Shown here: positions 1 to 19,139 of the stretch, piece by piece
How the letters are laid out: the number at the start of each line of letters is the position of its first letter
How positions within the stretch are numbered: the stretch's first letter is position 1
Origin: Lachnospiraceae bacterium UBA1753
GTDB lineage: Bacteria; Bacillota; Clostridia; Lachnospirales; Lachnospiraceae
Reading direction: 5' to 3'
Assembly (NCBI GenBank): GCA_002317595.1
Contig: DCHL01000103.1
Span: forward strand, 1 to 53,467
Length of the DNA stretch: 53,467 nucleotides
Notes under the pieces: generated by a model
What the model saw: only the letters and a program-made list of their open reading frames with translations
What the model was told of the DNA's origin: nothing
The model's database searches: none
Made by a program: the position numbers and the translations under genes

Positions 1-996
1 CTTGAGAACCTTGGTGCTTCACCTGAGCCCAACCTTACAGTTCTCTGGTCTCCTCGCCTTCCTGAGGCATGGAAGAGATACTGCGCTAAGATTTCTATCA
101 CAACATCTTCTATCCAGTACGAGAACGATGAGCTTATGAGACCTGTTCACGGTGATGATTACGGTATCGCTTGCTGCGTATCTTCAATGGTTATCGGAAA
201 GCAGATGCAGTTCTTCGGAGCACGTGCTAACCTTGCTAAGTGTATGCTTTACGCTCTCAACGGTGGTGTTGATGAGGTTACAAAGAAGCAGGTTGGACCT
301 AAGTACCGTCCTGTAGAGGGTGAGTACCTTGATTACGATGATGTTATGGCTAAGTTCATGGATATGATGGAGTGGCAGGCAGATGTATATGTTAACACTC
401 TTAACATCATCCACTACATGCATGACAAGTACTGCTATGAGAGAGCTCAGATGGCTCTTCATGACAGAGACGTTCTTCGCTACTTCGCAACAGGTGTTGC
501 TGGACTTTCAATCGTTGCTGACTCACTTTCAGCTATCAAGTATGCTAAGGTTAAGGTTATCCGCGACGAGGATGGCATCATCACAGACTTCGAGACAACT
601 GGCGAGTTCCCTAAGTACGGTAACGATGATGACCGCGTAGACGATATCGCTCAGGAGATCGTTCACAAGTTCATGACAGCTGTAAGACGTCACCATACAT
701 ACAGAAATGGTGTTCCTACAACTTCAATCCTTACAATTACATCTAACGTAACATACGGTAAGGCTACAGGTAACACACCTGACGGACGTAGAAAGGGACA
801 GCCTTTCGCTCCTGGTGCTAACCCGATGCACGGCCGTGATACTCACGGTGCAGTAGCTTCTCTGTCTTCAGTTTCTAAGCTTCCTTACAAGGATGCACAG
901 GATGGTATCTCTAATACCTTCACAATCATCCCTGGAGCTCTTGGAAAAGAGGATCAGGTATTCGCAGGAGACATCGAGATCGATCTTAACAAGTAA
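1..996 (+). CDS. pflB: Pyruvate formate-lyase (formate C-acetyltransferase), large catalytic fragment; 5' end lies outside the window; ORF stops before the glycyl-radical loop
   Basis: Frame 1 is open from nt 1 ([48 protein letters not shown]...). The catalytic Cys-Cys lies in [13 protein letters not shown] (codons 172-177). The sequence is PFL-like up to [14 protein letters not shown], followed by an 11-aa unrelated tail ([11 protein letters not shown]) and TAA at 994-996. This ORF has no RVSGYAV loop. Confidence 0.9.
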
Positions 997-1110
997 TTGA
1001 TCTTTGTTTGATATGTATTATTCCGGCTTCGGAACCAGGCCCCTGTAGGCTTAGCTCTTTTGGGTTCCCGGTTCCGACCCGGCATCGCATATACTTTTGG
1101 AGGTTTTGAC

Positions 1111-1314
1111 ATGGATGAAAAACAGATGGTAGACGATATTGTGGCTATGTTAGACGGTCAGATGTCTAACGGTACCGGCCATGTAAATCTGGACTATTCA
1201 GACAAGGCCGCTTCTGCAAAGAGCGTTGAGACAATGGGATGCGCAGATTGCTCTCGCACACCACTTGCATGCAGTGTTCCAACACTTCATCAGGGTCTTG
1301 ACGATTACAAATAA
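1111..1314 (+). CDS. Small hypothetical protein (67 aa) lying between the two PFL pieces; N-terminus resembles the start of the glycyl-radical fragment, tail contains three Cys
   Basis: ATG at 1111 is preceded by GGAGG (1099-1103, 7-nt spacer) and lies inside track ORF 1060-1314. MDEKQMVDDIVAMLDGQMSNGTGHVNLDY aligns without gaps to [25 protein letters not shown] of the next ORF. The tail GCADCSRTPLACSVP has no radical glycine motif. Confidence 0.5.
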   Translation: MDEKQMVDDIVAMLDGQMSNGTGHVNLDYSDKAASAKSVETMGCADCSRTPLACSVPTLHQGLDDYK

Positions 1315-1333
1315 TTTTTAGGAGGACAAACCA

Positions 1334-1576
1334 ATGGCAGCAAATACACAGCAGGTTGACAACCTGGTAAACTTACTTGATGGCTATTCAAAGAAGGGCG
1401 GCCATCATCTCAACGTAAACGTACTCAACAGAGACACTCTTCTTGATGCACAGGCTCATCCTGAGAAGTATCCTCAGCTTACAATCCGCGTTTCTGGATA
1501 CGCTGTAAACTTCGTTAAGCTTACACCTGAGCAGCAGGCAGACGTTATCTCTCGTACATTCCACGAGGCGATTTAG
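1334..1576 (+). CDS. grcA: Free-standing glycyl-radical domain protein (80 aa, GrcA/YfiD-like), equivalent to the C-terminus of PFL
   Basis: AGGAGG (1320-1325) lies 8 nt before the [62 protein letters not shown] is the canonical PFL/GrcA radical domain. The radical Gly codon is at 1496-1498. Confidence 0.85.
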
Positions 1577-1608
1577 TTAAGCTACAAGCCATGCACCCAA
1601 GCATGGAT

Positions 1609-1646
1609 AACGCCCTCCGAGCTTGCTCGAGAGGGCGTTTATTTAT
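1609..1646 (+). terminator. Rho-independent terminator-like hairpin after the glycyl-radical gene
   Basis: AACGCCCTCCGAGC-TT-GCTCGAGAGGGCGTT (about 14 bp with one bulge) is followed by TATTTATGCTT. A second 6-bp hairpin, CCATGC-ACCCAA-GCATGG, sits just upstream (1589-1606). Confidence 0.6.
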
Positions 1647-1775
1647 GCTTGGGTATACGGCGACAGCCGTCTACGAAGCAGACGCATGTCTGCGAGTAGG
1701 GCATGGCGCAGTTGCTCGAAAAAGCGGTTTATTTTTGCTTTGTCATTCGGCGACAGCCGTCTACGAAGCAGACGC
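1621..1775. repeat. Tandem direct repeat, two copies with 90-nt period, in the grcA-like/pflA spacer
   Basis: Copy 1 (1621-1685) and copy 2 (1711-1775) are similar throughout. They share an identical 28-mer, CGGCGACAGCCGTCTACGAAGCAGACGC, at 1658-1685 and 1748-1775. Each core contains the hairpin CGTCT-ACGAAGC-AGACG. Confidence 0.7.
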
Positions 1776-1801: not shown

Positions 1802-2572
1802 ATGGCATTAAAAGGACGTATTCATTCTCTCGAAAGTTTTGGTACAGTTGATGGACCCGGAACAAGATTCGTAGTCTTCTTTCAGGGCTGCCCCATGAGA
1901 TGCAAATACTGTCATAATCCTGACACTTGGCCACTTGATGGCGGCACAGAGATGACAGTTGATGAAATCATCACACAGTACAAGCGCAACGAGAGTTTTT
2001 ACGAGAATAAGGGTGGTCTCACTACAACAGGTGGCGAGCCTATGATGCAGCTCGATTTTCTTATCGAACTATATGAGGAGTGTCATAAGAGAGGCATCCA
2101 TACCTGTCTTGATACTTCCGGAATAGCTTTCAACCCTGACAGTGAGACAAACGTCGAGAAGGTTACTCGCCTTCTCAAATCAACAGACCTGATTATGCTT
2201 GATATAAAGCATATAGATCCTGAGCTTCACTACGACCTCTGCAAACAGAAGAATTCAAATATTCTTAAGTTTGCCCAGTTTGCATCAGACCAGGGTGTTG
2301 AGATCTGGATTCGACATGTAATTGTTCCCGGACTCACAGATGACCCTGTATATCTTGAGAAGCTTGGATATTTTATCGGTGGACTTAAAACACTCAAGGC
2401 TCTTGACGCACTTCCCTATCACACAATGGGAGAGGTCAAGTACGAGAAGATTGGTATGGAGTACCCACTCAAGGGGGTTCCTGCAATGGATCAGAGCACT
2501 CTGCTTGAGAAGAAGAAGTTCATCCTCGAAGGAATCAAGAAAAGACGTGCTGAAGATAATGCAAACGCATAA
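1802..2572 (+). CDS. pflA: Pyruvate formate-lyase activating enzyme (radical SAM)
   Basis: MALKGRIHSLESFGTVDGPGTRFVVFFQGCPMRCKYCHNPD carries the CxxxCxxC radical SAM cluster motif and the PflA-typical N-terminus. The track ORF 1703-2572 starts inside the repeat region, so ATG 1802 is the likelier start. Confidence 0.9.
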   Translation: MALKGRIHSLESFGTVDGPGTRFVVFFQGCPMRCKYCHNPDTWPLDGGTEMTVDEIITQYKRNESFYENKGGLTTTGGEPMMQLDFLIELYEECHKRGIHTCLDTSGIAFNPDSETNVEKVTRLLKSTDLIMLDIKHIDPELHYDLCKQKNSNILKFAQFASDQGVEIWIRHVIVPGLTDDPVYLEKLGYFIGGLKTLKALDALPYHTMGEVKYEKIGMEYPLKGVPAMDQSTLLEKKKFILEGIKKRRAEDNANA

Positions 2573-2664: not shown

Positions 2665-2835
2665 ATGGCACATGTTATTTCTGACGCTTGTGTAGCTTGT
2701 GGCGCTTGCGCTTCTGATTGTCCTGTTGGAGCAATCGCTATGGGCGATGGCAAGTATGAGATCGACGCTGATACATGTATCGATTGTGGCGCATGTGAGG
2801 GTGCTTGCCCTACAGGCTCAATCTCAGCTGAGTAA
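2665..2835 (+). CDS. fdx: Clostridial-type 2x[4Fe-4S] ferredoxin (56 aa); absent from the ORF track because it is under 60 aa
   Basis: AGGAG (2651-2655) precedes ATG 2665. MAHVISDACVACGACASDCPVGAIAMGDGKYEIDADTCIDCGACEGACPTGSISAE has two CxxCxxCxxxCP motifs. TAA is at 2833-2835. Confidence 0.85.
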   Translation: MAHVISDACVACGACASDCPVGAIAMGDGKYEIDADTCIDCGACEGACPTGSISAE

Positions 2836-2916: not shown

Positions 2917-4269
2917 CTATCCTTTAATATCCTTACGCTCGATAGAACCAAACTTAGTATATTCAGCACGCCAAACAAGAGAAATCTCACCAGTTGAACC
3001 ATTTCTATGCTTTGCTATGATAATATCTGCAATTCCCTTACGGTCTGTATCTGGCTTGTAATAATCCTCTCTGTATATGAACATTACGATATCGGCATCC
3101 TGCTCAATTGCACCAGACTCACGAAGGTCTGAAAGAACCGGCTTATGGTCAGGTCTTGAATCAACTGCTCGGGACAGCTGTGACAGCGCAATAACAGGGA
3201 TGTTGAGTTCTCTGGCCAATACCTTAAGCCCTCTTGAAATCTCAGCAATCTCGTTCTGTCTTGAGTCGCTTGCACGGCCCCTTCCCTGCATGAGCTGAAG
3301 GTAATCAATTACAATCAGGTCCAGTCCCTGCTCAAACTTCATCTTCCTGCATCTGGATCTCAGTTCGTTGACTGTAATACCGGGCCTGTCGCATATCATA
3401 AGGTTGGACTTTCCGATCACGCCACCACTCTCTACAATTTTATCCCAATCAGTGTCAGAGAGGTTTCCAGTCTTCATCATTCTTGAATTAACAGTTGCGT
3501 TCATTGCAATAAGTCTGTTAACAAGCTGCTCCTTACCCATCTCAAGACTGAATACCGCTACTGAATAATTCTTCTTAAAGCATGCATATTCTGCAATATT
3601 CAGGGCAAATGCCGTCTTACCCATAGCAGGTCTGGCAGCTATAAGAATAAGGTCAGAGCGCTGAAATCCAGCAAGCATGTTGTCAAGGTCGATGAATCCA
3701 GACGGAATTCCAGTGACATTGCCCACAGTCTTTGATGCCTTCTGAATATTATCAAGAGTGTTCATGACAATCTGGCCGATTGGAACGATGTCATCATCCC
3801 CGCGCCCCTGGAGCAGCGCGAAGATATCACTCTCAGCATCATTGAGAACCTTGTTAGTATCCTCTTCAGAAGCATATCCATCATCTGCGATCCGCTCTGC
3901 AGTCTTAATCAGCCTACGACGAAGAGACCTGTCTGATACAATATTGCAGTACTGCTTGTAATTTGCAGAGGTTGGTGTGTTCTCAAGAATCTGACTGATA
4001 AAACCTATCTCACACACCTCGGGCGGAGCCTGCTTCTCTCTAAGCTTAGCCTGAAGAGTAACATAGTCGACGTCCCTACGCTCGTAGTTCAGGTCTGCAA
4101 TGGCGCTGAAGAGAAGACCGTACTGCTTGAGGTAGAAATCCTCTTCCTTAAGATGCTCAACAGCATAGAGCAGAGCCTCCTCATCCATAAGCATGGATCC
4201 GATGGTAGCACTCTCAGCTTCTTTATCATATGGAATTTTGCGTGTAATTAAACTGGCATTAGCATCCAT
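2917..4269 (-). CDS. dnaB: Replicative DNA helicase (DnaB family; DnaC in Bacillus nomenclature)
   Basis: 450 aa. Walker A is ARPAMGKTAFALN. DYLQLM, SQLSRAVDSRPDHKP and the N-terminal PYDKEAESATIGSML are DnaB hallmarks. Conserved position downstream of rplI. Confidence 0.95.
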   Translation of the reverse strand: MDANASLITRKIPYDKEAESATIGSMLMDEEALLYAVEHLKEEDFYLKQYGLLFSAIADLNYERRDVDYVTLQAKLREKQAPPEVCEIGFISQILENTPTSANYKQYCNIVSDRSLRRRLIKTAERIADDGYASEEDTNKVLNDAESDIFALLQGRGDDDIVPIGQIVMNTLDNIQKASKTVGNVTGIPSGFIDLDNMLAGFQRSDLILIAARPAMGKTAFALNIAEYACFKKNYSVAVFSLEMGKEQLVNRLIAMNATVNSRMMKTGNLSDTDWDKIVESGGVIGKSNLMICDRPGITVNELRSRCRKMKFEQGLDLIVIDYLQLMQGRGRASDSRQNEIAEISRGLKVLARELNIPVIALSQLSRAVDSRPDHKPVLSDLRESGAIEQDADIVMFIYREDYYKPDTDRKGIADIIIAKHRNGSTGEISLVWRAEYTKFGSIERKDIKG

Positions 4270-4274
4270 ACAAA

Positions 4275-4721
4275 CTACTCTTCCTCTACCTTAACTGAGA
4301 GACTTGCTGACACCTGAGGGTGAAGCTTAACTGTTACCTTATATACTCCAAGACTCTTGATGGGCTCATCAAGTGTAATCTTCTTCTTATCGATATCAAG
4401 ATCAAACTGATCCTTAGCTGCAACAGCAATTTCCTTTGAGGATACTGAACCAAAGCTCTTTCCATCCTTGCCAGTCTTAATCTTGCATACTACAGTCGTT
4501 GACTCAACAACCTTGGCATATTCCTTTGCATCTGCCAGCTTCTGTGCAGCAACCTTATCATCATTAGCCTTCTTAAGCTTGATGTCATTGAGGTTCTTAG
4601 GTGTTGCCTCAAGTCCTAATTTTTTCTTAATGATGAAATTGCGGGCATATCCCTCATTGACTTCAACAATCTCATCCTTCTTACCAAGTGACTTTACGTC
4701 CTCAAGTAAAATTACTTTCAT
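4275..4721 (-). CDS. rplI: 50S ribosomal protein L9
   Basis: [36 protein letters not shown] is the L9 N-terminus. GGAAGGAG lies 9 nt before the ATG at 4721. The longer track ORF start (4742) overlaps gdpP. Confidence 0.9.
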
Positions 4722-4722
4722 A

Positions 4723-6789
4723 CTATATTTCTCCTTCCTCAATCATAGAATCTAATACTTCTTTCAGGATATCCACTACCTCATCAGGTGAATGACCCTC
4801 AATCTGTGCACCGGCAATATTCATGTGACCACCGCCGCCAAGCTTCTCCATTACAATCTGGACGTTGATTTCGTCGATGGATCTGGCTGATATGAATACC
4901 TTGCCCTGGTACTGTGTCATTATGAATGATGCCTTGACGGAATTGATATTTAGCAGCTCATTTGCAGCCTGTGCTCCAACAACGGTCGGTGAATCAATTC
5001 CCTCAGATGGCAGTATCGAAATGGCAAATTCGTCCCTATACAGCTCAGCCCTACGCACAGCCTCTGCCCTTGCCTTATAATCCGTAACATCATCCCTGAA
5101 TATTTTCCTTACACGAGTGACATCGGCGCCATTCCTTCTCAGGAAAGCGGCAGCCTCAAATGTACGCACACCGGTCTTTGTCATGAAATTATTCGTATCA
5201 ATCATAATTCCAGCATACAGACAGTCAGCCTCAACGCTCTTCAGCTTAATATTGTCACCAATATACTGAAGAATCTCAGCAACCATCTCACACGCACTCG
5301 ATGCATAGGGCTCAATATAGGACAGCGATGCATTCTCAATTCGCTCCGAGCTCTGTCTGTGATGATCAAGAACAACTATTGTCTTGCACATGTTAAGCAG
5401 TTCGGGGCACTCCGTAATGCCCGGCCTGTTTGTATCAACAACTACAAGAGCTGTAGTTGAATCCACCAGCGATATCGCTTCGCCTGAATTTATGATGATT
5501 CCCTCTTCATAATCAGGACTGTCAACAAAGTCATCCATCATCGCCCTGATTGAAGTAGTGACCTCGTTAATTACTATATTACATTTCTTGCCCAAAAATT
5601 TGGACGCCCTGAAGATACCCACAGCAGAACCAAAGGAATCGACATCGGATATCGAGTGGCCCATTACAATTACACGCTCCTTGCTCTCAATTATTTCCCT
5701 GAGTGCATGTGCCTTGACTCTTGCCTTCACGCGTGTGCTCTTTTCAACCTGCTGGCTCTTTCCACCATAATAGGTTATCTTCTCAGGAGTCTTGACCACT
5801 ACCTGGTCGCCGCCACGTCCAAGCGCAAGGTCGATGGCAGTCTTAGCATATGAAGCACTCTCAAGGAACGAAGGAGCATCCACACCAAATCCCATACTGA
5901 GCGTCACTGTAATCATACCACTGCCAAGACTTACATTTTTTACATCCTCAAGCAGACTGAACTTCTCAGCACACATTTCATCGTATGCCTTTCTCTTCAT
6001 GACAAAGAAATACTTGTCTGTTTCAGTCCTTCTCACTATTGCATCGTATGAAGAAAAATACTTGTTTACACGCCTCTCAATGAGTGCTCCAAGCAGAGAT
6101 CTCCTGACCTCCTCTATAGTCTCAAGCACCTCATCGTAGTTATCAATATAAATCACACCAGACACCAGTGTCTCATCCCTGTACCTGCGGATGTATTCAT
6201 TAAGTTCAGTCTCATCAAACAGAATCATGGCAATGAGGGAGCCCTCAAAAATCCCTCCTCCTGACAGAACACTGTGCCCTGCAAGGTTCTTCATGTTGAG
6301 CTTTCTCAGATTGGCCCTGAAGTCGCTTCCCTCATAGGAAAACTCAAAATCCACCGCTTCATCCGTTGTGGGAAGCTTATCCTTTGTAAGTTCAGGAACG
6401 AGGCTTGTTACTGATTTTTTGAAAAAATTATCCTTCTTAAATACTGTAGCGAAGGCCTCATTCTGCCAGACAAATCTGCCCGAATCATCAAGCAGGGCAT
6501 ATGGAAGGTCAAATTCCTTGAGGAGCTGTCTCTGTACCTGACCATAACTCGTCGCAAAGTCCATCAGCCCATACATGATTGCTGACTTTGATGAAAAATA
6601 TAATGCCGCCGCAATGATTATATACAGGAGTGCTATTCCGCCGACAATAATTCCGGCCTTTGGACTGTACAGGAAAGCCGCCAGTGTCATTATCACCGGC
6701 AGAATTCCAAGATATATCGGCCACAAAATATATGTGTTTAGCCGTCCTCTAACTTTTGCTCTCTTATTACTCATCATAATCCCCCACAA
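4723..6789 (-). CDS. gdpP: Membrane-anchored DHH/DHHA1 phosphodiesterase of the GdpP/YybT type (cyclic-di-AMP phosphodiesterase)
   Basis: Two N-terminal TM helices and a PAS-like region, then a degenerate GGDEF-like region. The DHH motif is VVLDHHRQS and the DHHA1 motif is [12 protein letters not shown]. Conserved gdpP-rplI-dnaB order. The start could be one of the Met codons within the first 6 residues. Confidence 0.85.
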
Positions 6790-6812
6790 TTCAGGCTATA
6801 TTGATATCAACA

Positions 6813-7571
6813 TCAATAGCTCTGCAGGTATACCTTCTCGGTCTTGATAAATTCACTGACACGCTCCATCTCGAGGTTGGTGTCCATCAGTTCTCCCTCT
6901 TCCGAAAACATTGGATGTACCATTATCTCAGCCAGCGCCCCTTCTGGCAGCTGACTATAATATCCAGCGAAGTCCTGAAATGAACCAAAGAATTCTGTCG
7001 TTGTGACGCCTAGCTTCTTCAACCTTCCATTGTAGTAATCCTTATATAATCTGTTGAAGGCTCCCGGCTTAACATCGAACATATTTCTTCCGAGGCGAAC
7101 AGACTTGAATCCATATTTTTTGAAAATGGGTTCTGCTGCCTTCCACACCGATAAATCTGTATGGACATGGTGGTGTGAATCCAGATGCTTTTCAGGAAGT
7201 CCAAAACTCAGATATCTTCGTATCTGCGCCTCAATCTCCTCTGCCACGGCCTTACTCTCTGCAGGACTCAAAATAAGCCTTGATTTTGTGGAACGGTGGA
7301 ATCCAGCGTGGAACTCACCCTTGCCATCGCAGAATGTTCTCATCGACTTAATCGTGCCTGTAAGAGGAACTCCCGCCGTGAGATTGAGATGCAGGCCTAC
7401 TTTGTCAAGAAAGCCTTCCCTCTCGGCCATCGCAGCAGCATCTGCAGCATAGGGCATATTAACCATCAGCGTAGTATTCGTAATTATCCCTTTTTCAAAG
7501 CTGAGACGAATGGCATCATTGACATCTTCACTGATTCCAAAGTCATCAGCATTAATTATTGCTCGAACCAA
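6813..7571 (-). CDS. YdjC/ChbG-family carbohydrate deacetylase
   Basis: INADDFGIS, GLHLNLT and LDSHHHVH motifs. The likely TTG start at 7571 has GGAGAG 9 nt upstream. The N-terminal 38 residues of the track ORF look non-protein-like. Confidence 0.7.
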   Translation of the reverse strand: MVRAIINADDFGISEDVNDAIRLSFEKGIITNTTLMVNMPYAADAAAMAEREGFLDKVGLHLNLTAGVPLTGTIKSMRTFCDGKGEFHAGFHRSTKSRLILSPAESKAVAEEIEAQIRRYLSFGLPEKHLDSHHHVHTDLSVWKAAEPIFKKYGFKSVRLGRNMFDVKPGAFNRLYKDYYNGRLKKLGVTTTEFFGSFQDFAGYYSQLPEGALAEIMVHPMFSEEGELMDTNLEMERVSEFIKTEKVYLQSY

Positions 7572-7697
7572 ACTAACAACCTCTCCGATATTGTTTCTGC
7601 ACAGAAACCGATTTGGATTTATTTTACCACACAACACACAAAAATACACATAAAAAAACACCCCGGCGTCACAGCCAGGGTGCATTATAAATCATTT

Positions 7698-8024
7698 CTA
7701 CTTGAAGAGTTCATCCATATACTCAGATGCTGCTTCCATATCCTTCTCAGAAATTGCGTCCTTCTTGAGGATTGTCTTTCTTGACATCATTCCGATTGCA
7801 AGGACTGCTGCAATTGCGCCAACATAGAGAACAAAGCTGTATGTACCTGCTTCCATCATTCCGTTTGCAAGGGGAACTTCCTCATCCTCAATGATTGTAA
7901 ACTCATATGTACTTGAAGACTCAAGCTGCTTCTCATTTTCATTCTGTGCAAATGCTGTGATGCTGAGCATCAGTGCAAACATAAGTGCAAGAACTGAAAT
8001 AACTGCAATAATTCTTTTCTTCAT
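7698..8024 (-). CDS. Small secreted/membrane protein of unknown function (108 aa)
   Basis: GAGAGG lies 6 nt before the ATG. It has a signal peptide (MKKRIIAVISVLALMFALMLSITAFA), a second hydrophobic segment near the C-terminus and an acidic tail. Confidence 0.6.
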   Translation of the reverse strand: MKKRIIAVISVLALMFALMLSITAFAQNENEKQLESSSTYEFTIIEDEEVPLANGMMEAGTYSFVLYVGAIAAVLAIGMMSRKTILKKDAISEKDMEAASEYMDELFK

Positions 8025-8199
8025 AACTTACCTCTCATCTATCTTTTCCGCAAATCAATACGGGAAACAACTCGTTTTCAATAATAATGACACCGCTGGA
8101 TCCTAAAAAGGTTCATTTTTTTATAAAAAATATTATTTTCATCGTTTTTATTATATAATAGTAATCATATTTTACTAGAATTTCGGGAGAAGATAAATA

Positions 8200-8883
8200 A
8201 TGAATTCATTTAAAGTATCAAAATATATTCAGCTGGCTCTGACGATTCTTTTCGATATTGCCTTTTTCACAATTCTGATAGTCGAGCCTGCTCTTCGCTA
8301 TGCGGTCTTTTCTAACAGGTATCTTCTTACTCTCTGTATTATCATGTGGGCATTCAGCATCGTCACTCTTGCGTTTCTCGTATCTGACCTGCACAAGATT
8401 CTCGAGCTTGAGATTACGCACCACGAACTTAATAAGGAAGCATATCTTGATGACCTGACAGGCATACCCAACCGTCATTCACTTGATTCTGTATTTGATG
8501 AGTATGAATCTTCAGACTCCATTTCCAAACTGGGATGCGCCATTGTTAAACTATCCAACTTAATTGAAATCAACAACGATCTCGGACGCTCTTCCGGCGA
8601 TGAAGCAATTCGTGTCTTCTCAGACATTTTTGAGACAGCTGGAGAGAGCTATGGTTTCGTTGTCAGAAACGGTGGTAATGAATACCTCGCCGTAATAGAG
8701 GACTGCACAGACAGCCGCATGCAGGAATTCATCAAGGGGCTGAAGGCTGCCATTGAAGCCAACAATATGAACCGTGAGAACATCCAGCTGGAGATTGAGT
8801 ATGCGTACGTAATCAACTCCGACATAGAAGCTGACCACATGAGCGACCTTATTGGCGCTGCATATAAGAAACTGGGGGTTTAG
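8200..8883 (+). CDS. Membrane protein with degenerate GGDEF domain (GGNEY in place of GGDEF)
   Basis: About 3 N-terminal TM helices. DDLTGIPNRHSL is a typical GGDEF-domain start. The active-site loop reads VVRNGGNEYLAV, and the upstream metal-binding DxDxFK...GH region is also altered (VKLSNLIEINNDLGRSSGDEAI). Confidence 0.75.
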   Translation: MNSFKVSKYIQLALTILFDIAFFTILIVEPALRYAVFSNRYLLTLCIIMWAFSIVTLAFLVSDLHKILELEITHHELNKEAYLDDLTGIPNRHSLDSVFDEYESSDSISKLGCAIVKLSNLIEINNDLGRSSGDEAIRVFSDIFETAGESYGFVVRNGGNEYLAVIEDCTDSRMQEFIKGLKAAIEANNMNRENIQLEIEYAYVINSDIEADHMSDLIGAAYKKLGV

Positions 8884-8885
8884 CC

Positions 8886-9443
8886 TTGGCTGATATCAAT
8901 CATCTCTATCTCGGGATGCTTGTCCGTAAAGCTCAGGCCCATGACAGTAACGCCTTTGCGGAGCTATACGGACTCACCTACCAAAAACAGTATAATTATG
9001 CCTGTTACTACCTTAAGGACACTCATCTTGCACAGGACGCTGTACAGGAAGTGTATATTCACGTCCTTAAACACATTGGTGACATCAAGGACCCGAAGCT
9101 CTTTCTCGCCTGGCTCAATCAGATTACTTTCCACACCTGTTTTGATATGGCGAAAAAGCAGGACAAGCACTATGGGGAGATAAATCCTCTTGCACTTGAG
9201 CTCTCAGAGGATGATTACATCGACCACAACCCCGAGGCCCTCACCCAGAAACAGGATGAAATAGACCGTCTTAAGAAGGCAATCAATTCACTGCCAGCCC
9301 TCGAGCAGCAGATAATAGTACTTAAATTTTTTAACAACCTGACAATTGATGAAATTGTGCAGGCCACCGGAATCAGCAGAAGCACGATAAAGCGCCATCT
9401 AATCTCAGGAAAGGAACACCTGGCCACAGCAATGGCAACCTGA
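8886..9443 (+). CDS. Sigma-70 family (ECF-like) RNA polymerase sigma factor
   Basis: Region 2 (AFAELYGLTYQKQYNYACYYLKDTHLAQDAVQEVYIHVLKH) and region 4 HTH (LTIDEIVQATGISRSTIKRHL). The TTG start lies 2 nt after the GGDEF stop, with a GGGGG Shine-Dalgarno. An alternative ATG is at 8916. Confidence 0.85.
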   Translation: MADINHLYLGMLVRKAQAHDSNAFAELYGLTYQKQYNYACYYLKDTHLAQDAVQEVYIHVLKHIGDIKDPKLFLAWLNQITFHTCFDMAKKQDKHYGEINPLALELSEDDYIDHNPEALTQKQDEIDRLKKAINSLPALEQQIIVLKFFNNLTIDEIVQATGISRSTIKRHLISGKEHLATAMAT

Positions 9444-9485
9444 GACAGGCAAAAATCCCACTAACAGATTTCGGAGATATTTGGT

Positions 9486-9974
9486 ATGATATTTAATAAG
9501 AAAAATAATTTTGAACATAATCTGGATATGGCCCAGGCTGAAGAGATGCTGCAGAACGTATTTGCCGCTGCTGGAGAGTCGCCAAATACCATAATGCTCG
9601 ATAAGCTCATGCTGCGAAAGAAGGTTCAGACAAGAAGCATTATGACAGCTGGTGCAATCGGAATCATTGCAATGCTGCTTGTGTTATTCTCTCCCCTTGT
9701 ATTCCTAGTATCATATTCACGGATTACTGTTCCTGAAATTGAAGAAAACTATATGATAGGCGACACGCTTTATGTCATAATCAGCCCAGACAGTATAGGG
9801 ACCGACTACTATTCATCCTATGCGAAGGACGATTCCGGCAATACTGTTGCGCCATCTGAAATTGATGAGGAGACGCGGACACTGGCCTTCCCTGCCAGAA
9901 CCGGCTCTCTGAACATTTATATAATGAATTATTCAGGAAAAATCACTCATGCGATTTATACATCACTCAAATAG
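9486..9974 (+). CDS. Single-pass membrane protein, positional candidate anti-sigma factor
   Basis: GGAG lies 9 nt before the ATG. One TM helix (AGAIGIIAMLLVLFSPLVFLV) separates a 50-aa cytoplasmic N-terminus from a 90-aa extracytoplasmic C-terminus. There is no zinc anti-sigma motif, so the assignment rests on position only. Confidence 0.4.
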   Translation: MIFNKKNNFEHNLDMAQAEEMLQNVFAAAGESPNTIMLDKLMLRKKVQTRSIMTAGAIGIIAMLLVLFSPLVFLVSYSRITVPEIEENYMIGDTLYVIISPDSIGTDYYSSYAKDDSGNTVAPSEIDEETRTLAFPARTGSLNIYIMNYSGKITHAIYTSLK

Positions 9975-10890
9975 GTATATAATGTCTTTGTGCGGTTTAT
10001 TGTTGCTTGCCATGCTAATCTTTTCAGGCTGCGGCAGTACCGCCCATGAGAATCCTGACAAGAGCAGTCTTCCGCTGCGCCCATCAGTCCCTGTTGTACT
10101 GATTCCCACCGCGGATGGTACTAAGACTTTTGAGAATGCCAAAGTCAGAATTGATTATTCAAACTGCTCCGAAGGATATATCATCGCTTATTATATTGGC
10201 TCAAGCCAGAAGGCAAGATTACAGATTTCCGGCCCCGACCGCATCACATACACCTACATAATGCATGGCGGTCAGGAAGTATTCCCGCTCCCATCAGGCA
10301 GCGGCCAGTATGAGATTTCTGTGTATGAAAATATCCAGGATGACCAGTATGCAGCCATTCTCATGGAGTCCCTCGAGGTTTCCCTAAAGGATGACCACTC
10401 TGCCTTTCTCTATCCAAGCCAGTACGTCTGGTTTGACGAGTCCACAGAGGCTGTTAAGAAGGGTGAGGAACTGGCAACCGGTTGTCATGATGACCTTGAG
10501 GTTGTTGAGAAGGTGTACACTTTCGTCAAGGACAATATTACCTATGATGAAGAAAAGGCCAAGACAGTAAAGGCCGGATATCTTCCCGTAGTCGATGACG
10601 TTCTCTCCTCCGGGACAGGTATATGCTTTGATTACGCGGCTCTGATGGCAACTATGCTAAGGACTCAGCAGATTCCCACCAGACTCAACGTCGGTTATAC
10701 CGGAAGCGGAGTATACCATGCGTGGTTAAGTGTTTATATCACTGATACAGGCTGGGTTGATGGCTACATACAGTTTGATGGTAAGGACTGGGTACTGATG
10801 GACCCGACTTTCGCTGCATCCTTCGGATCGGAGCGACTACAGAAATATATCGGAGATAACAGCAATTATATTTTAAAATATACATATTAA
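9949..10890 (+). CDS. Transglutaminase-like cysteine peptidase-fold lipoprotein
   Basis: Lipobox IFSGC. Cys-His-Asp triad context is GICFDYAALMATMLRTQQIPTR, YHAWLSVY and LMDPT. It overlaps the preceding ORF by 26 nt; an alternative ATG is at 9982. Confidence 0.75.
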   Translation: MRFIHHSNRYIMSLCGLLLLAMLIFSGCGSTAHENPDKSSLPLRPSVPVVLIPTADGTKTFENAKVRIDYSNCSEGYIIAYYIGSSQKARLQISGPDRITYTYIMHGGQEVFPLPSGSGQYEISVYENIQDDQYAAILMESLEVSLKDDHSAFLYPSQYVWFDESTEAVKKGEELATGCHDDLEVVEKVYTFVKDNITYDEEKAKTVKAGYLPVVDDVLSSGTGICFDYAALMATMLRTQQIPTRLNVGYTGSGVYHAWLSVYITDTGWVDGYIQFDGKDWVLMDPTFAASFGSERLQKYIGDNSNYILKYTY

Positions 10891-10899
10891 GGAGACATT

Positions 10900-11955
10900 A
10901 TGAATCAGATTAAGGCAAGCAATCCTCTGTCAAATCATGAAATATCAACATTTGCCAGTCAGATGGGTATGATGCTTTCAGCAGGAATCACGGTCGATGA
11001 AGCACTTAGACTTCTAGAGACTGACTCCGAGACTGCAGAAGGCCGTAATCTCATCAAGGGCATTTATGAGACACTCGAGGATGGCAATTCCCTCTATACC
11101 TCCATGTCAGAATCGGGGCTTTTCCCCAAGTATGTTCTTGATATGGTGAATATCGGTGAACAGACTGGTAACCTGGACAATGTTTTTTCTTCGCTTTCTG
11201 AATATTATGAGCGTGAGGAATCCATAGCTGAGGGAATCAAGCAGGCGGTTACATATCCCTTTATCATGATTGTGATGATGCTCTGTGTTATCCTTGTACT
11301 CATGATTAAGGTTCTCCCGATATTTGAGCAGGTTTATGAGCAGCTCGGAACCAGCATGACTGGTATTTCAGCATCAATCCTGAACCTCGGCCAGTCGATG
11401 GGAAGATATTCAGCCGTATTTGTCGTTGTCTTTGTTCTTCTCATTGCAGCATTCTTCTATTTCACAAAGACAGAAAAGGGTAAGCTAAATCTTGAGAAGT
11501 TTGCTTCTTCATTTGTTCTTACCAGAAATCTCTACGACAAAATTGCTGCCGGTCATTTCGCAAGCGGTCTTGCACTTGCCATTGGCTCTGGATTTACAAC
11601 AGAGGAAGCCATTGAGATGGTTGAGCAGCTCATAACCAATGAGCAGTATAAAAATAAAATCAAGAAGTGCCGTGAGATGATGGACGATGGGGTTGTCTTT
11701 GCTGATGCGGTTGTTCAGTCAGACATCTTTTCTGGTTCTTATGGCCGTATGGTTTCAATAGGATTTAAGAGTGGTCAGCTCGACCGCGTAATGTCAAAGG
11801 TTGCAACCCGTTACGAGCTTGAAGTGGACAGGGAGATTGGACATTTTGTATCCATCCTCGAGCCTACTCTCGTTGCCATTCTTTCAATCGTAGTTGGTAT
11901 GATTCTGCTGTCAGTAATGCTTCCCCTTATGGGAATTATGAGTTCAATAGGATAA
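10900..11955 (+). CDS. GspF/PilC/ComGB-family platform protein of a type II secretion / type IV pilus-like machine
   Basis: AAGGAG precedes the ATG. 351 aa with two repeated T2SSF-like halves (SAGITVDEALRLL..., SGFTTEEAIEMV...) and three TM segments. Confidence 0.85.
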   Translation: MNQIKASNPLSNHEISTFASQMGMMLSAGITVDEALRLLETDSETAEGRNLIKGIYETLEDGNSLYTSMSESGLFPKYVLDMVNIGEQTGNLDNVFSSLSEYYEREESIAEGIKQAVTYPFIMIVMMLCVILVLMIKVLPIFEQVYEQLGTSMTGISASILNLGQSMGRYSAVFVVVFVLLIAAFFYFTKTEKGKLNLEKFASSFVLTRNLYDKIAAGHFASGLALAIGSGFTTEEAIEMVEQLITNEQYKNKIKKCREMMDDGVVFADAVVQSDIFSGSYGRMVSIGFKSGQLDRVMSKVATRYELEVDREIGHFVSILEPTLVAILSIVVGMILLSVMLPLMGIMSSIG

Positions 11956-11962
11956 ACAGTAC

Positions 11963-12295
11963 ATGAGACGAAACAGGTTAAAAAAAGAAAAACCAAATAT
12001 CGCTTTTGCTGTTGTCTTTCCTCTTGTTACGTTTGTCGTGATCTTTGCCATGTTCTATTATGGCATCACTCAGCTCTCTGAAGCATCTGACCGCCAGCAG
12101 CTCGAAGGTCTACAGACGACCATTGAGCGCGACATCGTACACTGCTATGCTTCAGAAGGAGAATATCCTCCAAGCCTTGAGTATCTTGAGGAAAATTACG
12201 GTCTCACATACGACCACAGCAAATATTTTGTAGATTATCAGCCGGTGGGTACAAATATCCTTCCGGATGTTACTGTGATGGAGGTTTCCAAATGA
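11963..12295 (+). CDS. Small membrane-anchored protein (110 aa), pseudopilin-position gene
   Basis: The basic leader MRRNRLKKEKPNIAF is followed by one hydrophobic helix. The leader resembles that of ORF 13415. No canonical G-FTLxE motif. Confidence 0.5.
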   Translation: MRRNRLKKEKPNIAFAVVFPLVTFVVIFAMFYYGITQLSEASDRQQLEGLQTTIERDIVHCYASEGEYPPSLEYLEENYGLTYDHSKYFVDYQPVGTNILPDVTVMEVSK

Positions 12296-12807
12296 GAGAA
12301 CAGGAAAATAACCACATCATAGATCTGCTCTTCACGCTTACACTGTTCGGTGTCTTTGCGGCATCGGCGCTCCTCGTCGTGATCTTTGGTGCAAGAATAT
12401 ATGAGAATACAGCTTCAAGTATGAACAGAAACTTCACATCACGAACTGCAGTATCATATATCACTGAAAAGCTTCGCCAGAGAGATGTCATTGGAGCTGC
12501 TGATATCACAGACATTGAAGGGATTCCCGCCATCACACTGGTCAAGCAGTATGATTCAACCACCGTGTATACCTACATCTATGCAGACGAAGGGTACCTT
12601 AAGGAGGTTACGGTCACAGGTGATGTCACTCCCACAGCTGCATCAGGCCAGAAAATTATGGCTCTTGATCAGTTCTCTGTCCAGGAAATAGCAGAGGGCG
12701 TTTACTATGTAACTATTGTTGACACAGATGGCAACCACGAGGCTACGTATATCGCCACGAAATGTGATCCTGATTTACGTGGAGCCGCAATGGCTGCGCC
12801 AGAATAG
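12292..12807 (+). CDS. Small membrane-anchored protein (171 aa), DUF4860-like by recollection
   Basis: GGAGG precedes the ATG, with a 4-nt overlap with the upstream ORF. The N-terminal hydrophobic segment is IIDLLFTLTLFGVFAASALLVVIF. Confidence 0.5.
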   Translation: MREQENNHIIDLLFTLTLFGVFAASALLVVIFGARIYENTASSMNRNFTSRTAVSYITEKLRQRDVIGAADITDIEGIPAITLVKQYDSTTVYTYIYADEGYLKEVTVTGDVTPTAASGQKIMALDQFSVQEIAEGVYYVTIVDTDGNHEATYIATKCDPDLRGAAMAAPE

Positions 12808-12818
12808 AGGGAGGTATT

Positions 12819-13418
12819 ATGAACAAATCAAAATCAAGCCTCTTCCTCATGGAACTCATTCTGACCATTCTGGTGTTCTCTATTGCAAGTGCAGTGTGTA
12901 TCCAGATTTTTGTCAAGGCTCATCTGCTCAGCGAGAAGACACAGACACTTAACGAGGCTGTTACGCTGTGCACCAGCTGTGCTGAGCTGTTTTACGGCTT
13001 CGATGGGGATCTGGTAAAAATTAAAAACGAGCTCGATATCAGCAATATGGCAGTAGCTGAATCTTCATCTCTTACTTTGTACTATGATGAGAACTACTCC
13101 CTTGTATATCCTGAAGAGGGAAAGTATACACTTAAGCTTATTAACTCGACAGAAGGAAATATGCTGACCTGCAACATTGCCTTCACAGACATTGTTTCTT
13201 CAGAGTGTATTTATACTGTACCCTGCAGCCTGTATATCAGGCCCGCTGCTCCAGCCACAGATGACATGATGCTCCCCGACGCGGGTGTGCTCCCTAATGC
13301 AGGCGTTCTCCCCGACGCGGGTGTGCTCCCTGATGCAGGCGTTCTCCCTGACGCGGGTGTGCTCCCTGATGCAGGTGTTCTTCCTGAAGGAGATGTTATT
13401 GTAGGAGGTGCGCTATGA
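12819..13418 (+). CDS. Prepilin-like protein (199 aa) with C-terminal LPDAGV hexapeptide repeats
   Basis: AGGGAGG precedes the ATG. MNKSKSS-LFLMELILTILVFSIAS resembles the class III signal (short basic leader, hydrophobic helix, Glu at +5) but has Ser instead of Gly at -1. Seven hexapeptide repeats lie at the C-terminus. Confidence 0.6.
   Translation: MNKSKSSLFLMELILTILVFSIASAVCIQIFVKAHLLSEKTQTLNEAVTLCTSCAELFYGFDGDLVKIKNELDISNMAVAESSSLTLYYDENYSLVYPEEGKYTLKLINSTEGNMLTCNIAFTDIVSSECIYTVPCSLYIRPAAPATDDMMLPDAGVLPNAGVLPDAGVLPDAGVLPDAGVLPDAGVLPEGDVIVGGAL
13272..13397 (+). repeat. In-frame tandem repeat, 7 x 18 nt (effective 36-nt period) encoding LPDAGV-type hexapeptides
   Basis: Units alternate between CTCCCCGACGCGGGTGTG and CTCCCTGATGCAGGCGTT, which are two synonymous spellings of the same peptide. 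The last unit is degenerate (LPEGDV). Confidence 0.9.
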
Positions 13419-13828
13419 GTGAGAACAGATTAAAGAAAAAGGGACCGCAGATTGGTCTGAACATTGGTGCATCCTCTATCCTTGTAGTATTCATCGTTCT
13501 CTGCCTTGTAACATTTGCCGTTCTTTCGCTTGTCAGCGCAAATGCAGATTACAAGCTTTCAAAGAGAGTGGCTGACAGAACTACTTCATATTATCTTGCA
13601 ACTTCTGAAGCACAGAAGCAGCTGGGTGAGATGGCCGATGCTCCAAGGGATATGGAAGAGATAGCTGATTTTTCAGTACCTATCAGTGATACTCAGTCAA
13701 TACATGTTATTGCCAAGCTTCCTCCATCAATGTTTGCCAATCAGATGGAAATTCTCTCCTGGAAGATTGATAACACAGGCAACTGGGAAGCTGATGATAC
13801 GGTCGAAATCTACAAACAGAATCAGTAA
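13415..13828 (+). CDS. Small membrane-anchored protein (137 aa), pseudopilin-position gene
   Basis: AGGAGG precedes the ATG, with a 4-nt overlap with the upstream ORF. The leader MSENRLKKKGPQIGL is followed by the hydrophobic helix SSILVVFIVLCLVTFAVLSLV. Confidence 0.5.
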   Translation: MSENRLKKKGPQIGLNIGASSILVVFIVLCLVTFAVLSLVSANADYKLSKRVADRTTSYYLATSEAQKQLGEMADAPRDMEEIADFSVPISDTQSIHVIAKLPPSMFANQMEILSWKIDNTGNWEADDTVEIYKQNQ

Positions 13829-13841
13829 GCTGATAACTTAT

Positions 13842-13871
13842 AGTCGGTCTTTTTCAAGACCGACTTTTTAA
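13842..13871 (+). terminator. Rho-independent terminator ending the sigma/GspF/pilin-like operon
   Basis: AGTCGGTC-TTTTTCAA-GACCGACT followed by TTTTTA. Confidence 0.7.
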
Positions 13872-13900
13872 GTATATAACCATACAACGGAGGATTCAGA

Positions 13901-15997
13901 ATGAAAATAAGGACAGAAAATAAAAATCCTGCAAAAAGATGTAAGAAGCATCTGGTGCTTCTTGTTGTAATATCACTGCTGCTCTCTATTTTTTTGACAG
14001 GCTGCAGCGATGAAGACGAGGAATACTCTGACGCATCTGTCACAGGCTCGTACGTGGAAACAGATAAGGACGAAGATGATGCTGATGCGGATAATGCTTC
14101 CCCAAAGGACTACAGCAACAAAAAGGGTGATACTGAAGCCTCTAATTTTACTCTCATGATATATATGTGCGGTTCCGATCTTGAGTCGGAAGATGGTGCT
14201 GCCACAATGGATATCATGGAGATGATGGAGGCCCAGCAGAGCGATTCCCTTAATATAGTCATTGAAACCGGTGGTGCTACAGAATGGCAGAACTCAATAG
14301 TTGAGGGTAATACAGTTCAAAGATATCAGCTTGTTGGCGATGATCTCCAGCTTCTTGAGGATAGGGGCAAAAAGCAGATTACTGACGGTAACGAGCTTGC
14401 TGACTTCATTAATTTTTCAACATCAAATTTCCCTGCTGACCGATATGGAATCATTTTCTGGGATCACGGCGGCGGAACTGTTGGTGGATACGGCTCTGAC
14501 CTGCTGTATGACGAAAGCTCAATGAGCATTTCCGATCTTGCAGCATCGGTTGGATCTACGGGCACTCATTTCGATTTAATCGGCTTTGACTGCTGCCTTA
14601 TGGCTACTGCCGAGAATGCATATGCACTTTCTCCCTATGGAGACTATCTGATTGCTTCAGAGGAGTCCGAGCCTGGCACAGGCTGGTATTATACAACATT
14701 CATCGATATGCTTGCTTCTAATCCAGGTATTTCTATTCCAAAGCTTGGAAAGACAATGATTGAGGATTACATTTCTCCAAGTAATACTAATGTAAGTTCC
14801 GGTGTAACTCTGTCTCTCATTGACCTTGGCCAGATGAATAATCTCATGGAAGCATATTATTCATATCTCGGTAGTTCAGAGCAGGCACTTCTCGATGGTG
14901 ATTTCTCAAGGATTTCCAATGCAAGAAGTGATTCACGAAGTTATGGTGATGGCGATTTTGAGCAGATTGACCTTCAGGACTTTGTTGAGAAATCTGCGCT
15001 CTCTGGAGCAGATGAACTTGTGAATGCAATCAGCGATGCAGTACTCATCAACGGAACTAATATGGCTGGTTCAAACGGTATTGCAATCTACTTCCCATAT
15101 AAATACTCAGAGTATTATACCCAGATATCGCTGATTACAGACGAGGCTGGTCTTGATAATGATAATTACAAGACATTCTTCAATGATTTCGTAACTGTCA
15201 TGACAGGAGGTCAGGCAAGCGGCGGTGGCAATTCCAACCCGTACTATTCTGAGGATTCCGAGGCTGTCGACTATACTCAGACAGAGGGTGAGACCTGGTA
15301 CGATGAAGATATTGCAGACACATATGCAGACAGCTATTCATATGTCGACTCTGACGAGCTTGAAATCACTGAAAAGGGTGATGGTTATGTACTTCAGCTC
15401 TCTGAGGACGATTGGGAACTTGTCACTGATATAGATATGGAAGTATATGTTGATGATGGCGAAGGCCATCTCGCTCTTGGATGGGACGATTCCTATGAGT
15501 TTGACGACGATGGAGACCTTATTGTTGATTTCAACTATCAGTGGATGGCACTGAACGGTATGTATGTTCCATACTATTTCTTCGAACAGGGTGAATACAC
15601 CGACGGCACCAGCTACAGCCTTGGCTATGCAGCCGCAACATTAAATGACGAAAAAGACATTCGTATCTGGGTTATTTATGACTGGGAGGAAAATACTCTT
15701 GATGTCCTGGGCTACACTCCTGACATAAATTATGAGGATGGATTCTCTGTTGCCAGCAAGGGATATAAGGATTTCAAGGATGGTGACAGAATTGATTTCT
15801 ACTTTGATTACTACGATTACGACGGAGAATATCAGGACGGGTTTATGCTTGATGACAACTATATTATTTATAGTGATTCAGAAGGACTTACTGCTTCATA
15901 CGAGGATATCGGAGAACTTGATACACAGATCTGCTTCCACCTTACCGATATCTATGGAAACGAATACTGGACCGAAGCACTTAATCTTTCCATGTAA
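13901..15997 (+). CDS. Clostripain-related (peptidase family C11) cysteine peptidase lipoprotein
   Basis: Lipobox LTGC. FTLMIYMCGSDLES. The catalytic His is in IIFWDHGGG and the catalytic Cys in GFDCCLMAT. The linker and C-terminal region are Asp/Glu/Tyr-rich. Confidence 0.85.
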   Translation: MKIRTENKNPAKRCKKHLVLLVVISLLLSIFLTGCSDEDEEYSDASVTGSYVETDKDEDDADADNASPKDYSNKKGDTEASNFTLMIYMCGSDLESEDGAATMDIMEMMEAQQSDSLNIVIETGGATEWQNSIVEGNTVQRYQLVGDDLQLLEDRGKKQITDGNELADFINFSTSNFPADRYGIIFWDHGGGTVGGYGSDLLYDESSMSISDLAASVGSTGTHFDLIGFDCCLMATAENAYALSPYGDYLIASEESEPGTGWYYTTFIDMLASNPGISIPKLGKTMIEDYISPSNTNVSSGVTLSLIDLGQMNNLMEAYYSYLGSSEQALLDGDFSRISNARSDSRSYGDGDFEQIDLQDFVEKSALSGADELVNAISDAVLINGTNMAGSNGIAIYFPYKYSEYYTQISLITDEAGLDNDNYKTFFNDFVTVMTGGQASGGGNSNPYYSEDSEAVDYTQTEGETWYDEDIADTYADSYSYVDSDELEITEKGDGYVLQLSEDDWELVTDIDMEVYVDDGEGHLALGWDDSYEFDDDGDLIVDFNYQWMALNGMYVPYYFFEQGEYTDGTSYSLGYAAATLNDEKDIRIWVIYDWEENTLDVLGYTPDINYEDGFSVASKGYKDFKDGDRIDFYFDYYDYDGEYQDGFMLDDNYIIYSDSEGLTASYEDIGELDTQICFHLTDIYGNEYWTEALNLSM

Positions 15998-16063
15998 TAG
16001 GATGTGTGCTAAAATAATTTTTGGTGTTTAACCACAATACTTAAGAAGGGATATGAGGGACCT

Positions 16064-16903: not shown

Positions 16904-16918
16904 TTTTCTCGAAATACT

Positions 16919-16952
16919 GGCTGTCGCATATAATATGCGGCAGCCTTTTTTT
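16919..16952. terminator. Terminator hairpin after focA
   Basis: GGCTGTCGCATA-TAAT-ATGCGGCAGCC followed by TTTTTTT. Confidence 0.8.
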
Positions 16953-17031
16953 GGCCCGATTCGGTTGCAGACCAGAAATGGGGAAACCATTCATGAATTG
17001 GAGCATTGGCTATGAAAACGAGATAGAAAAA

Positions 17032-17252: not shown

Positions 17253-17287
17253 TGAAAAGGGCCATCGCATTTTTGCGCGACAGCCCC
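17253..17287 (-). terminator. Rho-independent terminator after ftsH
   Basis: On the minus strand, GGGCTGTCGC-GCAAAAAT-GCGATGGCCC (10 bp including two G-U pairs) is followed by TTTTCA. It starts 10 nt after the ftsH stop. Confidence 0.65.
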
Positions 17288-17296
17288 AATACATAA

Positions 17297-19132: not shown

Positions 19133-19139
19133 ATAATTC

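Follow-up and report, generated by a model that had tools for sequence, protein, structure and literature searches.

How can a pyruvate formate-lyase (PFL) work if its gene ends before the segment that carries the radical glycine? The question is raised by a locus at the start of contig DCHL01000103.1 (53,467 nt; assembly GCA_002317595.1) of the gut-type Lachnospiraceae bacterium UBA1753; the whole of this stretch is called the window below. In this locus, the PFL reading frame stops short of the glycyl-radical domain, which is encoded by a separate gene of 80 codons downstream, and a third small gene lies between the two. PFL is central to fermentation in many anaerobes, and oxygen inactivates it irreversibly by cleaving the chain at the glycyl radical. 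To our knowledge, facultative anaerobes, with their spare part GrcA/YfiD, have the only remedy described for the oxygen-cut enzyme. Comparison of the locus with its relatives makes it quite likely, in our judgment, that it encodes a naturally split, multi-subunit PFL whose radical subunit (GrcA3) is supplied in trans.

Where the PFL chain is divided

The PFL frame is already open where the window begins (frame 1) and is closed by the TAA at 994-996. The fragment matches the Pfam family PFL-like (PF02901) with an E-value of 1.5e-102. It also matches positions 345-665 of the 744 positions of TIGR01255 with 532.9 bits, a score that comes from the C-terminal 331 residues held by the window, while the equivalog cut-off of 994.2 bits is a score for the whole protein. 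The full-length large chain of relatives has approximately 679 amino acids (homologues: 678-685 amino acids). A fold search gives 65% identity to E. coli PFL. The catalytic Cys-Cys pair lies in the motif IACCVS (nt 166-183) and is kept in the distant relatives L085 and L088. It also aligns with the pair in E. coli PFL and in chains from the Protein Data Bank (PDB). In an alignment to the solved E. coli PFL, the large chain can be followed up to residue 680/681. The Pfam profile Gly_radical (106 positions) is likewise cut, at 50/51: positions 1-51 fall on the large chain and positions 50-106 on the 80-codon open reading frame (ORF). By these alignments, the split site is between residues 680 and 681 of E. 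coli PFL.

The large chain stops 11 residues beyond the equivalent of PFL residue 680, and the RVSGY loop is not on this polypeptide; the same holds in all relatives. The 11 residues form an acidic tail that has no counterpart in single-chain PFL. The tail motif V-F-[AS]-G-D-[IL]-[ED]-[ILV]-D-L, preceded by GK-x-x-x, is kept in approximately 70 relatives, and the tail takes an acidic form in distant tripartite loci as well (…ELDLDRL…, …DLDIDLDGL…). An earlier reading of this DNA, made from the letters alone (the original prediction), had the PFL frame ending at this TAA, after GKEDQV and 11 further codons, and we confirm these coordinates. It had described the 11 codons as unrelated to PFL. 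They are indeed unlike single-chain PFL, but they are not junk, since they encode the conserved tail. The original prediction was also right in placing the missing C-terminus on a separate ORF downstream, with its own ribosome-binding site and the glycine codon of the RVSGYAV loop at the positions given in Table 1.

This small ORF encodes a protein whose residues 9-79 align to residues 683-758 of E. coli PFL, so that Gly55 corresponds to Gly734. It belongs to the NCBIfam family NF038360, "autonomous glycyl radical cofactor GrcA3" (161.8 bits; cut-off 158), and the match is full length, with protein residues 4-80 over positions 2-78 of the 78 in the profile. Homologues of the protein, one of them from Acetatifactor muris, have already been named GrcA3 by NCBI. 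The protein scores below the cut-offs of both GrcA/YfiD (TIGR04365; 100.2 versus 170 bits) and GrcA2 (NF008341; 108.9 versus 145 bits). Only residues 67-126 of YfiD can be aligned, to residues 20-79 of GrcA3. The disordered N-terminus of YfiD (approximately 60 amino acids) is missing from GrcA3, which includes instead a helix equivalent to PFL residues 683-695.

Table 1. Coordinates of the features at the PFL locus and immediately downstream (positions in the window)
Feature	Position	Strand	Basis or remark
PFL large catalytic chain, 3' part (331 codons and stop)	1..996	+	5' end cut by the start of the window
Codons of the catalytic Cys-Cys pair (IACCVS; E. coli C418/C419)	172..177	+	read from sequence
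Acidic C-terminal tail of the large chain, 11 residues	961..993	+	conserved in approximately 70 loci and in distant loci
GGAGG ribosome-binding site, 7 nt before the middle-gene ATG	1099..1103	+	read from sequence
Middle gene, 67-amino-acid protein	1111..1314	+	homologue clusters, purifying selection, hhalign to GrcA3
AGGAGG ribosome-binding site, 8 nt before the grcA3 ATG	1320..1325	+	read from sequence
grcA3, 80-amino-acid glycyl-radical subunit (E. coli PFL 681-759)	1334..1576	+	NF038360, Pfam Gly_radical
Codon of Gly55, predicted radical site (RVSGYAV; E. coli G734)	1496..1498	+	alignment
Hairpin and T-rich run after grcA3	1588..1661	+	inverted repeat 1588-1610 / 1639-1661
pflA, PFL activating enzyme (radical SAM)	1802..2572	+	TIGR02493, 281.9 bits (cut-off 231.75)
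2x[4Fe-4S] ferredoxin, 56 amino acids, downstream of pflA	2665..2835	+	Pfam Fer4; same place in L001-L004

Is this arrangement peculiar to one genome? In a scan of one genome per species, at least 243 genomes encode a relative of the 67-amino-acid protein specified by the middle gene, and 80 loci were fetched, among them loci from Acetatifactor, Eisenbergiella, a Blautia metagenome-assembled genome and the isolate YSD2013. Every locus with enough DNA (approximately 85 loci) has the same order of genes: a truncated PFL gene, the gene of the 67-amino-acid protein and a gene for approximately 80 amino acids with the RVSGYAV motif. No long ORF carrying the glycine loop is present in any fetched locus. 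In metagenome contigs, as in the window, the three-gene operon is followed by pflA, a small ferredoxin gene and dnaB. Five very distant members of the 67-amino-acid family (profile E-values of 1e-9 to 1e-14, two near 1e-6) are located between a PFL gene for 681-684 amino acids and a Gly_radical gene for 78-80 amino acids; the L093 contig ends right after the middle gene, and the upstream PFL alone is visible there. Two genomes have two split loci each, on different contigs and with all three genes in both (L015/L021 in JAZQOL01; L036/L039 in JAGBMJ01). A comparison of related pfl loci had been put forward in the original prediction as a check on whether the split is conserved; the same split is found in 80 species-level genomes and in metagenome contigs. 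As far as gene content and order can tell, the split PFL is widespread and ancient, occurring in hundreds of related species.

Two further loci deserve mention. In L088, the middle gene starts within the last 8 nt of the large-chain gene (overlap at 2428-2435), which suggests translational coupling of these genes. Another genome (JAEEIK01) also has two copies of the locus, L046 and L055; the L055 contig ends before any GrcA3 gene could show.

The split is also found in a second, simpler form. Coriobacteriia (L089 3-976, Thermophilibacter; L090 3-934, Olsenella) have the same split residue, and an 83-amino-acid GrcA3-like gene and pflA follow directly after the large chain. They differ from the Lachnospiraceae loci in having no middle gene and in the tail of the large chain, which is longer (30-55 amino acids), acidic and ends in Cys motifs (…ENPAPDCGCC; …VDCACAAD…). 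On alignment, the split at 680|681 is common to two phyla, in two-gene and three-gene forms. Two PDB chains, both titled "Formate acetyltransferase," are closer than E. coli PFL to the large chain of the window, and both are of the truncated type: 38la_A (687 amino acids) ends in …SLGKED, and 38lb_A (739 amino acids) continues with …ALGKSGNVMFGECD and approximately 44 more residues. A search with the C-terminal part of 38lb found no identical protein, and its best matches (approximately 83% identical) come from Olsenella and Thermophilibacter; 38lb is the closest solved relative of the Coriobacteriia form. No GrcA3-like chain accompanies 38la or 38lb in the PDB sequence file. Both entries are in the 2026 PDB sequence file and absent from a structure copy ending 2026-04-08, and are hence more recent; such recent depositions suggest ongoing work on these enzymes.

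We also asked how strongly the three genes are constrained. The window was compared with 12 relatives, and the proportions of nonsynonymous (pN) and synonymous (pS) differences were calculated, pS being near saturation. The large chain has a pN of 0.03-0.10 (pS 0.48-0.70), the middle gene 0.14-0.24 (pS 0.69-1.0) and grcA3 0.05-0.15 (pS 0.52-0.76). All three genes are under purifying selection, with pN far below pS in the 12 comparisons, and each of them has its own Shine-Dalgarno site.

The gene between the two chains

The large-chain and grcA3 ORFs are 337 nt apart, and part of this interval is filled by a GGAGG site and a gene of 67 codons, which the original prediction had overlooked. Homologues of the 67-amino-acid protein fall into 1326 clusters at 90% identity, all of which are unannotated or annotated as "hypothetical"; clusters with a taxon name are almost all from Lachnospiraceae. 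When 1.8 billion cluster representatives were searched with a profile, the family came to 213 clusters at 50% identity, nearly all with a length of 45-130 amino acids. Two long matches in this search (P0361 and P0370) are repetitive proteins that match by chance.

The protein has three parts. The N-terminal region (approximately 32 amino acids) is a helix and strand similar to those of GrcA3 and PFL, the central region is an acidic linker of variable length, and the C-terminal region contains the conserved motif (G)C-x-D-C-S-R-T-P-L-A-C-S-V-P-T-L-x-x-G-L-D. Within the close clade, the invariant residues are T41, G43, C44, D46 to S55, P57, T58, L59 and G62. Across the whole family, only D15, H24, C47, C54 and P57 are invariant (Cys-x6-Cys-x2-Pro), while C44 and H60 vary. 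With two invariant Cys only, the family has no four-ligand Cys/His motif for an Fe-S cluster. Some members (P0273, P0282, P0327, P0314; 105-129 amino acids) have long insertions, very acidic or rich in Ala/Thr/Glu, which lie either within the linker or beyond the Cys motif; these two regions evidently tolerate large changes in length. A reading of the Cys motif as that of a ribosomally synthesized and post-translationally modified peptide (RiPP) precursor or a sulfatase was considered and dropped: PflA lacks a SPASM domain, and the motif is unlike C-x-P-x-R.

What is the origin of this small protein? Pfam gives no match at E-values up to 1, and the sole NCBIfam match is a weak one, to positions 3-30 of GrcA3 (E-value 0.022). 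A sequence search of the PDB returned only a chance match to a thioredoxin (E-value 1.5). Comparison of profiles by hhalign is more informative: the close relatives align with GrcA3 at an E-value of 5e-5, and the broad family does so with a probability of 94.7% and an E-value of 5.6e-8, residues 3-34 falling on residues 4-35 of GrcA3. The shared region is a helix and the barrel strand beta10 (IDDLVxMLD…GxGHxNV versus …GGHHLNVNV). From these profile alignments, the N-terminus of the 67-amino-acid protein is homologous to GrcA3, and the protein is a partial paralogue of the radical domain.

Proposed supply of the radical domain in trans and a possible role of the third protein

How would an enzyme divided in this way operate? 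The large chain (approximately 679 amino acids), which stops just past the equivalent of V680 and ends in the acidic tail, would form the catalytic barrel with the Cys-Cys pair. GrcA3 has what this chain lacks, namely a helix, strand beta10, the glycine loop with RVSGYAV and the C-terminal helix; it would dock non-covalently and complete the barrel, and the adjacent PflA would install the radical on Gly55 of GrcA3. After cleavage by oxygen, the 9-kDa subunit alone would be replaced, instead of an 85-kDa enzyme. The arrangement of the genes suggests that the oxygen-sensitive part of PFL is probably a replaceable subunit. The original prediction had proposed a two-piece PFL served by the adjacent PflA. 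Comparative evidence favors its separate, co-functioning chains, but "two-piece" is incomplete, as a third conserved gene lies between them.

For the 67-amino-acid protein, we propose docking at the same slot because the region that it has in common with GrcA3 consists of the very helix and strand by which GrcA3 would dock; its Cys-x6-Cys-x2-Pro motif would then stand in place of the glycine loop. A role as a placeholder, an assembly factor or a regulator of subunit exchange is a tentative proposal, in our view the likeliest of the roles considered but short of an even chance. It is tempting to go further and imagine a three-component machine with an exchange cycle, although this is unlikely to be right in full. 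In such a cycle, the 67-amino-acid protein, a mimic without the glycine, would occupy the radical-domain slot when intact, activated GrcA3 is absent. Sitting there, the plug would keep the open barrel and the catalytic cysteines covered, perhaps in response to redox state, until freshly activated GrcA3 displaces it.

A precedent for a radical domain acting in trans is YfiD/GrcA of E. coli, which rescues oxygen-cleaved PFL by inserting its own strand and glycine loop (PMC8683613). Like GrcA3, both E. coli GrcA/YfiD and Y06I of phage T4 are small free proteins with the strand, the RVSGYAV loop and the last helix. As we predict for GrcA3, PflA activates E. coli GrcA, which then acts in trans on a PFL body whose own glycine loop is not functional. 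However, the PFL of E. coli is intact and GrcA is its back-up after cleavage by oxygen, whereas here the PFL gene itself has no radical domain. GrcA3 differs from YfiD also in its length (80 amino acids), in the absence of the disordered N-terminus, in the extra helix and, in Lachnospiraceae loci, in the company of a third gene.

A laboratory construct comes closer to the natural arrangement. Engineered tPFL(1-695), combined with truncated YfiD(61-127), could be activated, but weakly, and binding was poor as well (Andorfer et al. 2021; PMC8683613). As in our locus, this pair consists of a body without beta10 and the glycine loop and a minimal radical protein, but the laboratory cut is 15 residues downstream of the natural cut at 680|681. 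In contrast to the construct, the natural split keeps an acidic tail on the body and adds a protein with a second copy of the helix and strand. Residues 696-733 of PFL behaved like a recognition element for YfiD (PMC8683613), and by analogy the acidic tail may take over this recognition role.

Short Cys-containing proteins are found beside a large glycyl-radical chain in other enzymes as well, namely the beta and gamma subunits of benzylsuccinate synthase and the gamma subunit of 4-hydroxyphenylacetate decarboxylase. In these enzymes, the large chain retains the glycine loop, and [4Fe-4S] clusters are bound by the small subunits. The 67-amino-acid protein differs from such Fe-S subunits in having only two invariant Cys, no Pfam family and an origin as a paralogue of the N-terminus of the radical domain.

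How much of this has been described before? Our literature searches brought up no paper on either GrcA3 or a naturally split PFL, and a 2026 review of glycyl radical enzymes mentions YfiD-type spare parts alone (PMC13450708). The sources searched contain no description of the truncated partner, the acidic tail or the middle gene. The original prediction had taken the arrangement to be apparently undescribed. For the split architecture we agree, while the small chain already bears the name GrcA3 at NCBI; the NF038360 family, of which the 80-codon ORF is a member, treats the small protein alone, as a cofactor. The family name is thus already known, and the split architecture, the conserved tail and the 67-amino-acid mimic are undescribed as far as we could find.

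Several points weigh against the proposal of a split enzyme or parts of it. The name of the NCBI model (rad_fix_GrcA3, "autonomous glycyl radical cofactor") suggests that its curators see a repair part in the small protein and not a core subunit. E. coli PFL without residues 696-733 binds YfiD less well (PMC8683613), and a clean split is accordingly not automatically functional. That GrcA3 would be an obligate subunit is something we infer from selection and synteny. The model of the 67-amino-acid protein alone consists of one helix (residues 3-19) and disorder, with a mean pLDDT of 56, which makes its binding site a guess; such low confidence for the lone chain is as one would expect if it folds with a partner.

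Could the two PFL frames be joined after all, or has the gene simply been broken? Precise loss of 397 nt (960-1356) would join the frames, and an intron or other removable element, or recoding, would yield a normal single-chain PFL. The spacer past the large-chain stop also contains a GC-rich hairpin at 1020-1085 (CCGGCTTCGGAACC…GGTTCCGACCCGG), and the sequence 994-1113 folds modestly (z = -2.3). The lengths of the non-coding spacers differ widely among relatives (14-234 nt upstream of the middle gene, 2-216 nt downstream), and since the upstream spacer can be as small as 14 nt, the hairpin is not a conserved element. Intron covariance models, a check suggested in the original prediction, were run with Rfam on nt 700-2000; at E-values up to 10 there was no group I or group II intron or other family, only microRNA and long non-coding RNA noise (E-value of at least 0.19). 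The DNA in between contains a protein gene that purifying selection maintains, every ORF has its own Shine-Dalgarno site and ATG, and the large chain has a conserved tail and a stop codon, all of which leaves an intron or recoding very improbable. The original prediction had further noted the pentamer CAGGT at 955-959 and 1352-1356 and seen in it the edges of an insertion of approximately 397 nt into an intact gene. The coordinates hold, but no such insertion is needed. CAGGT codes for Gln-Val at both sites, PFL residues 679-680 in the large chain and 681-682 (Gln7-Val8 of GrcA3) in the small chain. A pentamer is common to both positions in only 37 of 70 related loci, and the distance between the sites ranges over 297-672 nt. 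CAGGT is not an insertion scar, because the Gln-Val pairs are neighboring residues and no target-site duplication. A sequencing or assembly error, or a recent pseudogenizing mutation in one genome, has the bare interruption of the ORF in its favor and nothing more. It is hardly conceivable given the same architecture in hundreds of independent assemblies from various laboratories and hosts, including a cultured isolate. Selection, the variable spacers, the absence of an Rfam match and the many assemblies lead us to reject intron, pseudogene and assembly error alike.

Accepting that the genes are real and separate, one may still ask whether GrcA3 is merely a spare part for an intact PFL encoded elsewhere, the truncated chain being a remnant or having another role. 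The filing of the 80-amino-acid protein among autonomous cofactors is in line with this, and spare-part proteins are the only small PFL partners in the literature that we found (PMC13450708). Yet the protein falls short of the GrcA and GrcA2 cut-offs, and the supposed remnant is more strongly constrained than the two small genes. The large chain has, moreover, retained the Cys-Cys pair and a conserved tail, and it adjoins the GrcA3 gene in every locus of two phyla. In the genomes with two loci (L015/L021, L036/L039) both copies are split, and no second PFL is found within the 53-kb window. We regard a mere spare part as improbable. An alternative that leaves the split PFL in place concerns the 67-amino-acid protein, which may be a permanent third structural subunit bound elsewhere, comparable to the small subunits of benzylsuccinate synthase, or a partner of free GrcA3 or of PflA that promotes installation of the radical. 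For efficient activation, E. coli YfiD depends on its disordered first 60 residues (PMC8683613), a region absent from GrcA3. In addition, small accessory subunits that regulate radical chemistry are reported for other glycyl radical enzymes, and the longer, Cys-ended tail of the Coriobacteriia, which have no middle gene, might fulfil the same function in cis. Against a separate site stands the shared region itself, which is the barrel-docking helix and strand and argues for the GrcA3 site; the lack of a four-Cys Fe-S pattern and of any Pfam match does not favor an accessory subunit of the familiar kind. We take a permanent subunit or helper to be the main alternative, possible and only slightly less likely than a role at the GrcA3 slot.

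If PFL is obligately split across Lachnospiraceae and Coriobacteriia, these major gut commensals would have turned a fragile cofactor into a cheap, swappable subunit, which would bear on the oxygen tolerance of strict anaerobes near the gut mucosa. Such a natural system would separate radical installation, subunit docking and catalysis, and might provide a template for the engineering of glycyl radical enzymes. The exchange cycle, if true, would give abundant gut anaerobes a dedicated plug-and-swap mechanism for a protein-radical cofactor. It would also be nature's answer to a split that functions poorly when engineered in E. coli. The locus also gives a context and a testable role to approximately 1300 clusters of "hypothetical" small proteins.

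pflA and the flanking genes

The gene that follows grcA3 is at the same position in relatives, and its product, a canonical PflA, contains a radical SAM domain (PF04055; E-value 2.4e-24). Between grcA3 and pflA, the hairpin listed in Table 1 includes a terminator-like site at 1624-1637 with the tail TTTATTTATG, and to judge from the sequence it is likely a terminator or attenuator before pflA. The same interval contains a 49-nt direct repeat (1637-1685 and 1727-1775; 90% identical, 90 nt apart). Each copy consists of a T-rich terminator tail and a CGTCT…AGACG hairpin, giving tandem terminator-like elements before pflA. The ferredoxin encoded downstream of pflA may be the electron donor for PflA, a candidacy that its position suggests. 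Farther along (2917-21194), the window encodes DnaB, ribosomal protein L9, a GdpP-type c-di-AMP phosphodiesterase, FtsH and a TilS-HPRT fusion. Because these neighbors are chromosomal housekeeping genes, we do not place the locus on a mobile element or phage. A strong hairpin is also present at approximately 2863-2893, downstream of the ferredoxin gene.

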